From assembly GCF_003334255.1 (NCBI RefSeq), contig NZ_QOWU01000012.1: 64,000 bases of DNA, one strand, 5' to 3'. Below the pieces are notes generated by a model that did no database searches, was not told the origin of the DNA, and saw only the letters and a program-made list of their open reading frames with translations. The position numbers and the translations under genes were made by a program. Positions within the stretch are counted from its first letter, which is position 1; each line of letters opens with the position of its first letter. Positions 3,142 through 30,321 of this stretch are shown here, in pieces. Origin of the DNA: Escherichia coli. GTDB lineage: Bacteria; Pseudomonadota; Gammaproteobacteria; Enterobacterales; Enterobacteriaceae.

Positions 3142-3288
3142 CAAGGACATCCTTATAGCAAAAGGGGGAAAATGAATAATGCAAAAATTGCCGCTAAAAG
3201 AGAAGTGTTTAACAGCAACGGCTAATTATCATCCAGGAATACGATATATAATGACGGGATATAGCGCTAAGTATATATATTCATCTAC

Positions 3289-23975: not shown

Positions 23976-25241
23976 ATGAGCAACAATGAATTCCATCAGC
24001 GTCGTCTTTCTGCCACTCCGCGCGGGGTTGGCGTGATGTGTAACTTCTTCGCCCAGTCGGCTGAAAACGCCACGCTGAAGGATGTTGAGGGCAACGAGTA
24101 CATCGATTTCGCCGCAGGCATTGCGGTGCTGAATACCGGACATCGCCACCCTGATCTGGTCGCGGCGGTGGAGCAGCAACTGCAACAGTTTACCCACACC
24201 GCGTATCAGATTGTGCCGTATGAAAGCTACGTCACCCTGGCGGAGAAAATCAACGCCCTTGCCCCGGTGAGCGGGCAGGCCAAAACCGCGTTCTTCACCA
24301 CCGGTGCGGAAGCGGTGGAAAACGCGGTGAAAATTGCTCGCGCCCATACCGGACGCCCTGGCGTGATTGCGTTTAGCGGCGGCTTTCACGGTCGTACGTA
24401 TATGACCATGGCGCTGACCGGAAAAGTTGCGCCGTACAAAATCGGCTTCGGCCCGTTCCCTGGTTCGGTGTATCACGTACCTTATCCGTCAGATTTACAC
24501 GGCATTTCAACACAGGACTCCCTCGACGCCATCGAACGCTTGTTTAAATCAGACATCGAAGCGAAGCAGGTGGCGGCGATTATTTTCGAACCGGTGCAGG
24601 GCGAGGGCGGTTTCAACGTTGCGCCAAAAGAGCTGGTTGCCGCTATTCGCCGCCTGTGCGACGAGCACGGTATTGTGATGATTGCTGATGAAGTGCAAAG
24701 CGGCTTTGCGCGTACCGGTAAGCTGTTTGCCATGGATCATTACGCCGATAAGCCGGATTTAATGACGATGGCGAAAAGCCTCGCGGGCGGGATGCCGCTT
24801 TCGGGCGTGGTCGGTAACGCGAATATTATGGACGCACCCGCGCCGGGCGGGCTTGGCGGCACCTACGCCGGTAACCCGCTGGCGGTGGCTGCCGCGCACG
24901 CGGTGCTCAACATTATCGACAAAGAATCACTCTGCGAACGCGCGAATCAACTGGGACAGCGTCTGACAAACACGCTGATTGATGCCAAAGAAAGCGTTCC
25001 GGCCATCGCGGCGGTACGCGGTCTGGGGTCTATGATTGCGGCAGAGTTTAACGATCCGCAAACGGGCGAGCCGTCAGCGGCGATTGCACAGAAAATCCAG
25101 CAACGCGCGCTGGCGCAGGGGCTGCTCCTGCTGACCTGTGGCGCATACGGCAACGTGATTCGCTTCCTGTATCCGCTGACCATCCCGGATGCGCAATTCG
25201 ATGCGGCAATGAAAATTTTGCAGGATGCGCTGAGCGATTAA
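23976..25241 (+). CDS. puuE: 4-aminobutyrate aminotransferase PuuE
   Basis: 421 aa; class-III PLP aminotransferase. Confidence 0.92.
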   Translation: MSNNEFHQRRLSATPRGVGVMCNFFAQSAENATLKDVEGNEYIDFAAGIAVLNTGHRHPDLVAAVEQQLQQFTHTAYQIVPYESYVTLAEKINALAPVSGQAKTAFFTTGAEAVENAVKIARAHTGRPGVIAFSGGFHGRTYMTMALTGKVAPYKIGFGPFPGSVYHVPYPSDLHGISTQDSLDAIERLFKSDIEAKQVAAIIFEPVQGEGGFNVAPKELVAAIRRLCDEHGIVMIADEVQSGFARTGKLFAMDHYADKPDLMTMAKSLAGGMPLSGVVGNANIMDAPAPGGLGGTYAGNPLAVAAAHAVLNIIDKESLCERANQLGQRLTNTLIDAKESVPAIAAVRGLGSMIAAEFNDPQTGEPSAAIAQKIQQRALAQGLLLLTCGAYGNVIRFLYPLTIPDAQFDAAMKILQDALSD

Positions 25242-25257
25242 TAGCCCAACGCAATAA

Positions 25258-25342
25258 TGTCTGATGCGCTGCGCTTATCAGGCCTGCAAACGACGTATTG
25301 ATTATGTATGCCGAATAAAGCATTCACGCCGCATCCGGCAAG
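25258..25342. repeat. REP/BIME-type palindromic units between puuE and pspF
   Basis: ctgatgcgctgcgcttatcaggcctgc and ccgaataaagcattcacgccgcatccggca both match REP consensus variants. Confidence 0.7.
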
Positions 25343-25360
25343 TTGTATTGCTCAACTTCG

Positions 25361-26338
25361 CTAAATCTGGTGCTTTTTCAACAACGCGCGGAACTGATGA
25401 TAAGTTAACCCCAGTAATTCAGCCGCGCGCTTCTGGTTATATTTCCCTTGTTGCAAACTGAGTTGCAGCAACTCTTTTTCCTGCTGCATCTGAAACTCAC
25501 GTAAATCCAGCGGCAGTGTTGGAAGCGAGGTGGTTTCTGAAACGGCGATAGCGTCTTCAGGCGGACGCCGTTTAAAGGGATCAATAATGATGTCATCAAG
25601 CGGATAATCGCTGGTGCCGTGGCGATACACTGAACGTTCCACCACGTTTTTCAATTCACGAATATTTCCCGGCCAACGATAATTCAGCAATGTTTCTCTG
25701 GCGCGCTCCGTAAACCCCGGGAACAGAGGCAGCTTGATTTCCCGACACATCTGGATGGCAAAGTGTTCTGCCATCAACATTATGTCGCTTTCGCGCTCGC
25801 GCAGTGGTGGCAGTTGTACAACATCAAAAGCCAGTCGGTCGAGCAGGTCAGCGCGAAAAGTGCCTTCATTGACCATCGCCGGGAGATCGGCATTCGTCGC
25901 GCATACCAACCGCACATTCACCTGCAATGGCTGGCTGCCGCCAACGCGCTCCAGTTCACCGTACTCAATCACGCGCAATAATTTCTCCTGCACCATCATC
26001 GGTGCCGTAGCGAGTTCATCAAGAAATAGCGTACCGCCGTCGGCACGTTCAAATCTCCCTGGATGACGTTTTTGCGCACCGGTAAACGCCCCCGCTTCGT
26101 GACCAAACAGTTCGGAATCCAGCAGATTTTCATTTAACGCCGCGCAGTTAAGGGAAATAAACGGCCCTTGCCAACGGGAGGAGAGATAATGCAGGCGGCT
26201 GGCAATCAGCTCTTTACCGGTGCCGCGTTCGCCGATGATGAGCACCGGTTTGTCCAGCGGTGCGAGATGCGAAACCTGTTCCAGCACTTCGAGAAAGCTG
26301 TTCGCCTCACCAAGTAAATTATCTTTGTATTCTGCCAT
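25361..26338 (-). CDS. pspF: Sigma-54 dependent activator PspF
   Basis: 325-aa product (MAEYKDNLLGEAN...); AAA+ sigma-54 interaction domain with GAFTGA loop and C-terminal HTH. Confidence 0.94.
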   Translation of the reverse strand: MAEYKDNLLGEANSFLEVLEQVSHLAPLDKPVLIIGERGTGKELIASRLHYLSSRWQGPFISLNCAALNENLLDSELFGHEAGAFTGAQKRHPGRFERADGGTLFLDELATAPMMVQEKLLRVIEYGELERVGGSQPLQVNVRLVCATNADLPAMVNEGTFRADLLDRLAFDVVQLPPLRERESDIMLMAEHFAIQMCREIKLPLFPGFTERARETLLNYRWPGNIRELKNVVERSVYRHGTSDYPLDDIIIDPFKRRPPEDAIAVSETTSLPTLPLDLREFQMQQEKELLQLSLQQGKYNQKRAAELLGLTYHQFRALLKKHQI

Positions 26339-26432
26339 GATGAAATTCGCCACTTGTTAGTGTAATTCGCTAATTCATCCTGGCATGTTGCTGATGATTC
26401 TTCAATCAGATCTTTATAAATCAAAAAGATAA

Positions 26433-27173
<741 letters not shown>

Positions 27174-27226
27174 TAACATCCAGGCGGCGTCCGAACGCGC
27201 CGCCGCTCATCGTCTAAGGAGTACTT

Positions 27227-27451
27227 ATGAGCGCGCTATTTCTGGCTATTCCGTTAACCATTTTTGTGCTGTTTGTTTTACCGATCTGGTTATGGCTGCA
27301 TTACAGCAATCGTTCTGGTCGCAGTGAATTGTCGCAAAGTGAGCAGCAGCGATTAGCGCAACTGGCTGATGAAGCAAAACGGATGCGCGAACGTATTCAG
27401 GCGCTGGAATCTATTCTTGATGCAGAACATCCGAACTGGAGGGATCGCTAA
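27227..27451 (+). CDS. pspB: Phage shock protein B
   Basis: 74 aa single-TM protein. Confidence 0.93.
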   Translation: MSALFLAIPLTIFVLFVLPIWLWLHYSNRSGRSELSQSEQQRLAQLADEAKRMRERIQALESILDAEHPNWRDR

Positions 27452-27810
27452 TGGCGGGCATTAATCTCAATAAAAAATTATGGCGTATTCCACAGCAGGG
27501 CATGGTCCGCGGCGTCTGCGCCGGGATTGCCAACTATTTTGATGTACCGGTAAAACTGGTGCGTATCCTGGTGGTGCTGTCGATTTTCTTCGGTCTGGCG
27601 CTGTTTACCCTGGTTGCTTACATCATTTTGTCATTTGCGCTTGATCCAATGCCGGACAACATGGCCTTTGGTGAGCAGCTACCTTCCAGCAGCGAATTGC
27701 TGGATGAAGTCGACCGTGAACTGGCGGCAAGTGAAACGCGTTTACGCGAGATGGAACGTTATGTCACTTCCGATACTTTCACGTTACGTAGCCGTTTCCG
27801 TCAACTGTGA
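27451..27810 (+). CDS. pspC: Phage shock protein C
   Basis: 119 aa; start overlaps the pspB stop. Confidence 0.93.
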
Positions 27811-27818
27811 GGAAAGTT

Positions 27819-28040
27819 ATGAATACTCGCTGGCAACAGGCCGGGCAAAAGGTAAAGCCTGGTTTCAAATTAGCAGGCAAGCTGGTACTTCTTACCGCAC
27901 TGCGCTATGGCCCGGCGGGTGTGGCGGGCTGGGCGATAAAATCAGTTGCTCGCCGACCGCTGAAAATGTTGCTGGCTGTGGCGCTGGAACCGCTGTTAAG
28001 TCGGGCTGCTAATAAACTGGCACAGCGTTATAAAAGGTGA
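27819..28040 (+). CDS. pspD: Phage shock protein D
   Basis: 73-aa product from ATG 27819 with RBS ggaaag upstream. Confidence 0.88.
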
Positions 28041-28114
28041 GGGGAGTTTCGCAAAAATTGTTAAATCTCAGGCGTATAATGGATGGCAATTTTCATCCAT
28101 AGAAGGACGCTTAC

Positions 28115-28429
28115 ATGTTTAAAAAAGGCTTACTTGCTCTGGCACTGGTGTTTTCACTGCCCGTTTTCGCCGCTGAACACTGGATCGATGTTCGTGTTCC
28201 AGAGCAGTATCAGCAAGAGCACGTTCAGGGGGCCATCAATATTCCCCTGAAGGAAGTGAAAGAGCGCATTGCCACCGCCGTTCCGGATAAAAACGACACC
28301 GTGAAAGTGTATTGCAATGCCGGACGCCAGTCAGGGCAAGCAAAAGAGATCCTTAGCGAGATGGGATATACCCACGTTGAGAACGCCGGTGGCCTGAAAG
28401 ACATCGCAATGCCGAAGGTCAAAGGTTAA
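28115..28429 (+). CDS. pspE: Periplasmic rhodanese (thiosulfate sulfurtransferase) PspE
   Basis: 104 aa; signal peptide; rhodanese active-site Cys (VYCNAGRQS). Confidence 0.93.
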   Translation: MFKKGLLALALVFSLPVFAAEHWIDVRVPEQYQQEHVQGAINIPLKEVKERIATAVPDKNDTVKVYCNAGRQSGQAKEILSEMGYTHVENAGGLKDIAMPKVKG

Positions 28430-28443
28430 AAGAATTCACCATG

Positions 28444-28470
28444 AGCGGCGCTTATGCGCCGTTTTTTTTT
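28444..28470 (+). terminator. Intrinsic terminator of the psp operon
   Basis: ggcgc ttat gcgcc stem followed by a run of 9 T. Confidence 0.85.
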
Positions 28471-28615
28471 CTGTCACACCTTATTTACATCCCCATAGAT
28501 TATTTGCGTCAGCTCACAAATACGCTTTTTCCCTGGTAAAAAATGATTTCCTGCGTGACTAAAACCCTTGTGCTCAATTGACAGTTTATTTTCTGCGGAG
28601 TAGTCTCTCGTTTCA

Positions 28616-28629
28616 TGGGACCGCTACCA
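28616..28629. promoter_or_regulatory. Candidate YcjW (LacI-family) operator upstream of ycjM
   Basis: TGGGACCGCTACCA, a partial palindrome around a central CG; identical 14-mer recurs at 38544-38557. Confidence 0.45.
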
Positions 28630-28641
28630 CGGAAAGGCAAC

Positions 28642-30321
28642 ATGAAACAGAAAATTACGGATTACCTGGACGAAATCTACGGTGGAACATTTACCGCAAC
28701 TCATTTACAGAAACTTGTAACGCGTCTTGAGAGTGCGAAACGATTAATTACACAGCGACGTAAAAAACACTGGGATGAAAGTGATGTCGTGTTAATTACC
28801 TATGCCGATCAATTTCACAGCAATGATTTAAAACCATTACCCACATTTAATCAGTTTTACCATCAATGGCTGCAAAGCATTTTTTCACATGTTCATTTGT
28901 TGCCGTTTTATCCATGGTCATCTGATGATGGCTTTTCGGTAATTGATTATCATCAGGTCGCCAGTGAAGCGGGGGAGTGGCAGGATATTCAGCAACTCGG
29001 TGAATGCAGTCATTTAATGTTTGATTTTGTCTGCAACCATATGTCGGCAAAAAGTGAATGGTTTAAAAACTATTTACAACAGCATCCAGGTTTTGAAGAT
29101 TTTTTTATTGCCGTTGACCCGCAAACCGATCTCAGCGCCGTCACTCGCCCGCGTGCGTTACCGTTATTAACGCCATTCCAGATGCGCGATCATTCAACGC
29201 GCCATTTATGGACCACCTTTAGTGACGATCAAATTGACCTGAATTACCGTAGCCCTGAAGTGTTGCTGGCGATGGTGGATGTTTTACTCTGTTACCTTGC
29301 GAAAGGTGCTGAGTATGTCCGCCTGGATGCCGTTGGCTTTATGTGGAAAGAGCCGGGAACAAGCTGCATCCATCTGGAAAAAACACATCTGATTATCAAA
29401 CTGTTACGGTCGATTATTGATAACGTTGCGCCAGGTACAGTGATCATTACCGAGACCAATGTTCCGCATAAAGACAACATTGCTTACTTTGGCGCAGGCG
29501 ATGACGAAGCACATATGGTGTACCAGTTCTCGCTGCCGCCACTGGTGCTGCATGCGGTGCAAAAACAGAACGTTGAGGCGCTTTGTGCGTGGGCGCAAAA
29601 CCTGACACTACCTTCCAGCAACACCACCTGGTTTAACTTCCTCGCCTCTCACGATGGCATCGGGCTAAACCCGCTACGGGGCTTGTTGCCTGAAAGCGAA
29701 ATATTAGAGCTGGTCGAGGCGTTACAGCAGGAAGGTGCATTAGTAAACTGGAAAAATAATCCCGACGGTACACGCAGTCCGTATGAAATAAATGTGACCT
29801 ATATGGATGCGTTAAGCCGCCGTGAGAGTAGCGATGAAGAACGTTGCGCCAGGTTTATCCTTGCCCATGCGATTTTGTTAAGTTTCCCCGGTGTGCCAGC
29901 GATATATATTCAAAGTATTCTTGGCTCGCGTAATGATTACGCAGGTGTCGAAAAACTCGGATATAACCGTGCGATTAACCGTAAAAAATATCACAGTAAA
30001 GAGATAACCCGAGAACTGAACGATGAAGCTACATTAAGGCATGCGGTATATCATGAGTTGTCGCGTTTAATTACACTTCGTCGCAGCCATAACGAGTTTC
30101 ATCCGGATAATAATTTTACCATTGATACGATTAATTCATCCGTAATGCGTATTCAAAGAAGTAACGCTGATGGTAATTGTCTGACTGGATTGTTTAATGT
30201 CAGTAAAAATATTCAGCATGTAAATATTACTAATCTGCATGGTCGGGATCTGATTAGTGAAGTTGATATATTGGGTAATGAAATAACGCTGCGCCCCTGG
30301 CAGGTTATGTGGATTAAATAA
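28642..30321 (+). CDS. ycjM: GH13 sucrose-phosphorylase-like glycoside phosphorylase YcjM
   Basis: 559-aa product from ATG 28642 (RBS ggaaagg); GH13_18 family. Confidence 0.88.
   Translation: MKQKITDYLDEIYGGTFTATHLQKLVTRLESAKRLITQRRKKHWDESDVVLITYADQFHSNDLKPLPTFNQFYHQWLQSIFSHVHLLPFYPWSSDDGFSVIDYHQVASEAGEWQDIQQLGECSHLMFDFVCNHMSAKSEWFKNYLQQHPGFEDFFIAVDPQTDLSAVTRPRALPLLTPFQMRDHSTRHLWTTFSDDQIDLNYRSPEVLLAMVDVLLCYLAKGAEYVRLDAVGFMWKEPGTSCIHLEKTHLIIKLLRSIIDNVAPGTVIITETNVPHKDNIAYFGAGDDEAHMVYQFSLPPLVLHAVQKQNVEALCAWAQNLTLPSSNTTWFNFLASHDGIGLNPLRGLLPESEILELVEALQQEGALVNWKNNPDGTRSPYEINVTYMDALSRRESSDEERCARFILAHAILLSFPGVPAIYIQSILGSRNDYAGVEKLGYNRAINRKKYHSKEITRELNDEATLRHAVYHELSRLITLRRSHNEFHPDNNFTIDTINSSVMRIQRSNADGNCLTGLFNVSKNIQHVNITNLHGRDLISEVDILGNEITLRPWQVMWIK

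Follow-up and report, generated by a model that had tools for sequence, protein, structure and literature searches.

The malE-malF hairpin, a REP element in malEFG, lies between an abundant, long-lived upstream cistron and less stable downstream cistrons, and for malE mutational proof of its role exists. Dar & Sorek 2018 (PLoS Genet, PMC5927463) used this system as the model for a set of structures, among them those of tatA-tatB, ompR-envZ and ptsH-ptsI, in which the RNA 3' end is located just past the stem and no U-tract follows, and they assigned exonuclease resistance, not termination, to such structures. Two other kinds of transcript end are close in anatomy: Rho-dependent transcripts, whose precise 3' end at steady state falls at a hairpin that lacks a U-tract (Dar & Sorek, NAR 2018), and intrinsic terminators, represented in the psp locus itself by the one after pspE.

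The hairpin between pspA and pspB of Escherichia coli is a listed member of the set of Dar & Sorek 2018, beside 25 others. As in malE-malF, a stable hairpin stands between an upstream cistron that is more abundant, and probably longer-lived, and its downstream neighbours, and as in the listed structures the 3' end falls just past a stem that no U-tract follows. It differs from malE-malF in being single-copy and non-REP, and from most of the set in its location, being in the spacer whereas 17 of the 26 structures are inside the downstream coding sequence. For its decay ratio Dar & Sorek relied on Moffitt et al. 2016 and not on a measurement of their own and, unlike the case of malE, no mutational test of the pspA-pspB hairpin was found in the searchable literature.

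Published tables already contain the hairpin, the 3' end and the abundance step, and the feature is in this sense already known. What is new in this study is evidence from 80 species that the stem, and not a U-tract, is selected in Enterobacterales, and the observation that the published kinetic case for decay over termination is thinner than the tables suggest.

The pspA-pspB spacer and its hairpin

The window, as the whole 64-kb stretch of DNA analysed is called here, is from E. coli K-12, and its psp operon is identical to that of MG1655, with no difference in the 1925 bases that run from the start of pspA to the stop of pspE. Subtraction of 1341574 from an MG1655 coordinate gives the position in the window. 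The features of the locus are listed in Table 1.

Table 1. Features of the psp locus, numbered from the first base of the window
Feature	Position	Strand	Basis or remark
pspF	25361-26353	minus	
pspA coding sequence, 222 aa	26505-27173	plus	open reading frame list; MG1655 b1304; cistron with the probably stabilised mRNA segment
Tandem pspA stops, TAATAA	27171-27176	plus	first TAA 27171-27173, second in frame; 9 nt from first stop to hairpin start
pspA-pspB spacer	27174-27226		53 nt
Hairpin 5' arm, GGCGGCGU	27183-27190	plus	RNAfold and covariation
Hairpin loop, CCGAAC	27191-27196	plus	RNAfold; sequence and length differ among species
Hairpin 3' arm, GCGCCGCC	27197-27204	plus	RNAfold and covariation
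pspA RNA 3' ends	27207-27208	plus	Term-seq, two independent E. coli studies; 3-4 nt 3' of the stem
Second, weaker hairpin, GCUCAU (27205-27210) with AUGAGC (27227-27232)	27205-27232	plus	folds, -7.8 kcal/mol; restricted to one clade
pspB Shine-Dalgarno, AAGGAG	27216-27221		in the loop of the second hairpin
pspB coding sequence	27227-27451	plus	ATG at 27227; first cistron of the downstream segment, less abundant and probably less stable
pspC	27451-27810		phage-shock locus
pspD	end at 28040		phage-shock locus
pspD-pspE spacer	28041-28114		TATAAT-like hexamer and inverted repeat
pspE	28115-28429		phage-shock locus
Canonical intrinsic terminator after pspE, hairpin and T9	28443-28473	plus	terminator scan; internal comparison
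RNA 3' end at the pspE terminator	28467		MG1655 1370041 (Adams et al. 2021, PMC7815308)

The earlier note on this DNA described a ggcggcg/cgccgcc hairpin in the 53-bp spacer with no T-tract downstream, and both observations hold. GGCGGCG (27183-27189) and CGCCGCC (27198-27204) pair perfectly, and a U27190-G27197 pair added by RNAfold extends the stem to 8 bp; the range originally given, 27182-27205, takes in one unpaired base per side. The 10 nt 3' of the stem, GCTCATCGTC, contain 3 T and no T-tract.

The minimum free energy of the spacer is -19 kcal/mol (z = -2.4), a value equalled by 2 of 200 shuffled sequences, and that of the hairpin by itself is -15.4 kcal/mol. A scan of both strands of the window, set to accept perfect stems of 7 bp or longer that contain 6 or more G/C and enclose a loop of 3-8 nt, found comparable hairpins at 7 distinct places in the 64 kb. 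The odds of such a hairpin in one given 53-nt spacer are roughly 0.6%, so that its occurrence here by chance is unlikely.

REP and BIME elements are present in many copies with a shared consensus, a pattern that the pspA-pspB hairpin does not follow. A 201-nt query centred on the spacer found a match, with an identity of at least 95%, in 5420 of 5426 complete E. coli genomes, at a median of one place per genome, and no further copy of the hairpin is present in the window; the genome comparison is an indirect test, since a lone 22-nt repeat could escape megablast. A search of positions 25000-29000 against Rfam by E-value gave no match at the hairpin and chance-level matches elsewhere. The weak sub-threshold ones comprise two to naRNA4, a REP-derived family, in the puuE-pspF spacer (25224-25351, E about 5) and one to the sucA motif in the pspF-pspA regulatory region (26360-26442, E = 0.6), and are probably chance matches or REP sequence.

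A consensus scan also pointed to a terminator-like site on the minus strand (27198-27176). This candidate was rejected: no convergent gene lies downstream, its 'T-tract' is merely the complement of the TAATAA stops of pspA, and the sole Term-seq 3' end listed by Adams et al. 2021 with the coordinate prefix 13687 is on the plus strand.

Conservation of the stem and its tail in Enterobacterales

In order to compare the spacer among relatives, psp loci of 80 Enterobacterales species were collected using PspA as the query, and each pspA-pspB spacer was extracted. A hairpin of at least -11 kcal/mol strength occupies the equivalent position in 79 of the 80 species, with a median of -16.4 kcal/mol, and the median distances that separate it from the preceding pspA stop and the following pspB ATG are 8 nt and 23 nt. 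The only species without it is Pantoea coffeiphila (L074, 3166-3201), whose spacer is 35 nt long and has a best hairpin of -1.5 kcal/mol; this species would be a natural control for the dependence of the pspA:pspB step on the structure.

The letters of the stem differ by lineage and pairing is retained. The arms are GGCGGCG/CGCCGCC in Escherichia, GCGGCAC/GUGCCGC in Enterobacter, GGCGGCAUC/GAUGCCGCC in Kosakonia, CUGCGGC/GCCGCAG in Cedecea and Buttiauxella, and GUGGUGUC/GACACCAC in the locus L070. Covariation was evaluated by counting the 8-pair E. coli structure on an alignment that MAFFT made of 70 distinct spacers from sequence alone (alignment A1). Pairing was found in 89.4% of the cells, and changes on both sides in 6 of the 8 pairs, with 59 doubly changed cells in total; these values were reached by none of 500 shuffles. 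Sliding the 3' partner by 1-3 columns gave pairing of 24-66% and 4-26 doubly changed cells. The explicit count was adopted because RNAalifold, run on the MAFFT alignment, recovered just 4 of the 8 pairs, divergent rows being misaligned. As judged from this comparison, structure rather than sequence has been kept among the relatives, which is good evidence that the hairpin is a selected RNA structure.

The sequence following the stem follows another pattern, with 3 or fewer T in 8 nt in 73 of the 80 species. Across the whole set, the stem is selected and a T-rich tail is not.

In the remaining seven species (for example L065, L072, L073, L075, L080 and L059, with spacers at about 3170-3235 in each locus), 4-5 of the 8 nt after the hairpin are T. 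Among these lineages are an Enterobacteriaceae MAG, a genome labelled Citrobacter freundii M-21, Atlantibacter, Erwinia and Dryocola. In them the hairpin may act as a true terminator or attenuator, and one structure may have switched between barrier and terminator roles over evolution.

Some species have long spacers of 101-164 nt with extra structured, G+C-rich inserts, namely Kluyvera intermedia, two Raoultella, an Enterobacteriaceae isolate and two Pectobacterium (L055, 3169-3333; L062, 3166-3312; L063, 3166-3305; L051, 3169-3273; L077 and L079, 3166-3267). The GC-rich hairpin is kept beside the insert in at least L055, L062 and L063. At the Rfam gathering threshold, five of these loci (L055, L062, L063, L051 and L077) gave no match.

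RNA 3' ends and mRNA levels at the hairpin

Published Term-seq tables place a steady-state RNA 3' end immediately 3' of the hairpin. In Table S6 of Dar & Sorek 2018 (PMC5927463) this exact hairpin is given as a 3' protective structure, with an end at BW25113 1363039 (...GCCGCU, position 27207 of the window). The 'primary' pspA 3' end of Adams et al. 2021 (PMC7815308, Supplementary file 1, sheet LB 0.4) is at MG1655 1368782(+), that is position 27208, the RNA ending in ...CGCCGCC-GCUC. The homologous hairpin of Salmonella has its own Term-seq 3' end just past the stem (Dar & Sorek 2018, PMC5927463, Table S5).

The excess of pspA over pspBCD proposed in the earlier note is borne out by mRNA ratios of 2.7-3.2 in E. 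coli and 3.95 in Salmonella. The uniform coverage across pspA-pspB that the same note had set against its own proposal is not what published data contain; coverage steps down. For E. coli, Dar & Sorek 2018 (PMC5927463) reported the steady-state pspA:pspB mRNA ratio as 2.72 +/- 0.16, and for Salmonella the expression ratio as 3.95 +/- 0.26 (Table S5). They counted pspA-pspB among the differentially decaying pairs, the upstream gene being the stabilised one (Table S3), and gave a half-life ratio of 2.12 with Moffitt et al. 2016 as the source. Their filters had removed any pair that showed a U-tract terminator, an internal start site or Rho termination sensitive to bicyclomycin. An internal pspB promoter was considered here as well and rejected, there being no sigma-70-like match on the plus strand and pairs with independent start sites having been excluded by Dar & Sorek.

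In the wild-type data of Moffitt et al. 2016, pspA is present at 0.280 mRNA copies per cell and decays at 0.143 per min (95% interval 0.07-0.22), and pspB at 0.087 copies per cell with a decay of 0.303 per min (95% interval 0.034-0.57); for pspC (0.075 copies per cell) and pspD (0.037) no decay is reported. The step from pspA to pspB is clear, being 3.2-fold. The half-life difference is known from one dataset, in which the two mRNAs are present at about 0.1-0.3 copies per cell, and the intervals of the two decay rates overlap.

The time courses of the same study, at very low counts, differ between the two cistrons. After rifampicin addition the pspA level is flat over the first four time points and then decays, and promoter-distal pspB drops from the first time point. 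This order of delays is opposite to that of one co-transcribed RNA, and fits a separate, stable pspA-only species.

The Term-seq and half-life data behind the stabiliser reading are from uninduced cells. Under overproduction of PspF, the fold changes of pspA, pspB and pspC were 11.8, 3.6 and 2.4 (Bury-Moné et al. 2009, PMC2731931), which represents the same pspA/pspB step under induction.

At the distal end of the operon, pspE mRNA is present at about 1.07 copies per cell, approximately 30-fold over pspD (Moffitt 2016 data). Inspection by eye shows a TATAAT-like hexamer in the pspD-pspE spacer and, after it, an A/T-rich inverted repeat, ATGGATG-N8-CATCCAT, which sits just 5' of the pspE ribosome-binding site. 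The hexamer and the high pspE level fit the separate pspE promoter of the literature.

Explanations for the step between pspA and pspB

The earlier note had proposed that the hairpin acts as a partial terminator or stabiliser. The stabiliser half of this proposal is supported by the Term-seq 3' ends and the half-life ratio of 2.1, and the terminator half is the weaker one, given the missing U-tract and a negative terminator score. The hairpin is very probably the cause of the pspA excess, be it by the decay route or by the termination route, and probably acts as an intercistronic 3' protective stem-loop, an mRNA stabiliser of the malE-malF type.

According to this explanation, a pspABCDE transcript would be made from the sigma-54 promoter, and its downstream part, encoding the membrane proteins PspB and PspC, would be cut and degraded faster. 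Inner-membrane-protein mRNAs decay faster on average, the degradosome being located at the membrane (Moffitt et al.), and PspB and PspC are proteins of this class. The 3'-to-5' exonucleases, presumably PNPase and RNase II, would then run back and stall at the 8-bp G+C-rich hairpin. What remains would be a pspA-only mRNA, stable and translatable, with its end 3-4 nt past the stem, and in this way a single promoter would give about threefold more pspA mRNA than pspB-D mRNA. RNase E-like RNWUU sequences are found in early pspB (27260, 27275, 27298 and two more), and were set aside as the motif is too common to serve as evidence.

An unlikely rival is that the hairpin is a leaky, non-canonical intrinsic terminator, or attenuator, which would release a fraction of RNA polymerases after pspA, the 3' end being trimmed by a few nucleotides afterwards. 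Huvet et al. 2011 placed a termination site here, lowering pspB-E transcription to roughly 1:4, but the statement cites no experiment. Quantitatively, the abundance ratio of 3.2 exceeds the decay-rate ratio of 2.1 in the same dataset, so that an approximately 1.5-fold factor is left over. In the Moffitt table labelled 'Mutant replicate 1', pspA and pspB are both without measurable decay and their ratio is still about 2.2, which hints at a component acting at synthesis. The 4-5 T found after the hairpin in 7 of the 80 species, such as L065, L072 and L075, also point in this direction.

The anatomy in E. coli speaks against it. Of the two parts of an intrinsic terminator, the G+C-rich stem-loop is present and the U-rich tract 3' of the stem is absent, the tail being GCUCAUCGUC. 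The pspE terminator is similar in its G+C-rich 8-bp stem (-11.4 to -15.3 kcal/mol, compared with -15.4 kcal/mol) and in the 3' end just downstream, and differs in possessing a T-tract. The tail score is 0.48 for the pspA-pspB hairpin and 4.7-5.8 for the pspE terminator, and a score of the d'Aubenton-Carafa type is -40.5 against +35 to +58. A consensus terminator scan of the plus strand called the pspE terminator and made no call at the pspA-pspB hairpin. For pspA the RNA ends 3-4 nt beyond the stem, and for pspE about 6 nt beyond it, inside the T-tract, a difference that post-termination trimming could blur. In addition, as noted above, across the 80 species it is the stem and not a T-rich tail that is selected, and pairs with an intrinsic-terminator signature were excluded by Dar & Sorek 2018. 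Leaky termination could coexist with the stabiliser role as a minor component.

Rho could also terminate transcription within pspB or pspC; if exonucleases then trimmed the RNA as far as the hairpin, the same 3' end would be left, and the general pattern described for Rho-dependent transcripts (Dar & Sorek, NAR 2018) matches the anatomy at pspA-pspB. This explanation is nevertheless very unlikely. Neither bicyclomycin-sensitive read-through, as judged from literature tables, nor a rut region was found. For uninduced cells, the tables of Adams et al. 2021 (PMC7815308) contain no region of Rho termination at 13687xx-13691xx or under pspA, pspB, pspC or pspF, and criterion iv of Dar & Sorek 2018, applied to uninduced cells as well, admits to the list only pairs with no substantial bicyclomycin-dependent read-through. 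The C/G ratio in the downstream 78-nt windows is 0.64-1.24, does not exceed 1.06 over the first 240 nt and is mostly below 1, which indicates that there is no C-rich, G-poor, rut-like stretch; the C-over-G enrichment downstream of the hairpin that accompanies Rho-dependent transcripts is thus not seen here. The Shine-Dalgarno sequence of pspB is strong and invariant, so pspB is presumably translated.

Two readings of lower probability involve translation. In the first, which is decidedly speculative, the hairpin would be a translation-sensitive switch, with translation of pspA tuning either U-tract-independent polymerase release or exonuclease protection. Because the start of the hairpin is conserved at about 8 nt past the pspA stop, terminating ribosomes should melt its base. 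The distance from the first stop is 7-8 nt in 35 of the 80 species, close enough for a terminating ribosome to reach the base of the hairpin, and a tandem in-frame TAATAA ends pspA in 43 of the 80. If true, the switch would couple PspA synthesis to the pspBC message, that is, to the ratio of negative regulator to sensor.

In the second, which is hardly probable, the structure would serve mainly translation, either by spacing or insulating the pspB ribosome-binding site from ribosomes that terminate on pspA or by setting pspB translation together with the second hairpin. The fairly constant position of the hairpin relative to the pspA stop and the pspB ATG agrees with this, as does the fact that in E. 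coli the second hairpin pairs the pspB start codon, placing it in the stem and the Shine-Dalgarno sequence in the loop. The 5' arm of the second hairpin, GCTCAT, is found in 25 of the 80 species (Escherichia, Salmonella, Citrobacter, Pluralibacter and relatives), for which the predicted probability of the AUG being unpaired has a median of 0.04, against 0.52 in the others; its 3' arm is coding, and for this reason the second hairpin cannot covary. Against the reading, the second hairpin is missing in 55 of the 80 species while the first is present in 79, and an effect on translation leaves the mapped RNA 3' end and the mRNA abundance step unexplained. The published pspA 3' ends lie within the 5' arm of the second hairpin. 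If the switch described above were real, the masking of the pspB start by the second hairpin in the Escherichia-Salmonella-Citrobacter group would add a layer to it.

That the hairpin is a functionless chance palindrome or REP-like relic has nothing specific in its favour beyond the absence of an Rfam family, and is effectively refuted by covariation. Compensatory substitutions have kept the structure in 79 of the 80 species; E. coli genomes have it as a single copy, and hairpins of its kind are seen at only 7 places in 64 kb.

The hairpin bears on the balance of the phage-shock response. PspA, the effector and at the same time the negative regulator of PspF, has to exceed the membrane sensors PspB and PspC in amount. 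An RNA element acting in cis to set the PspA:PspBC ratio from one sigma-54 promoter would be part of this balance.
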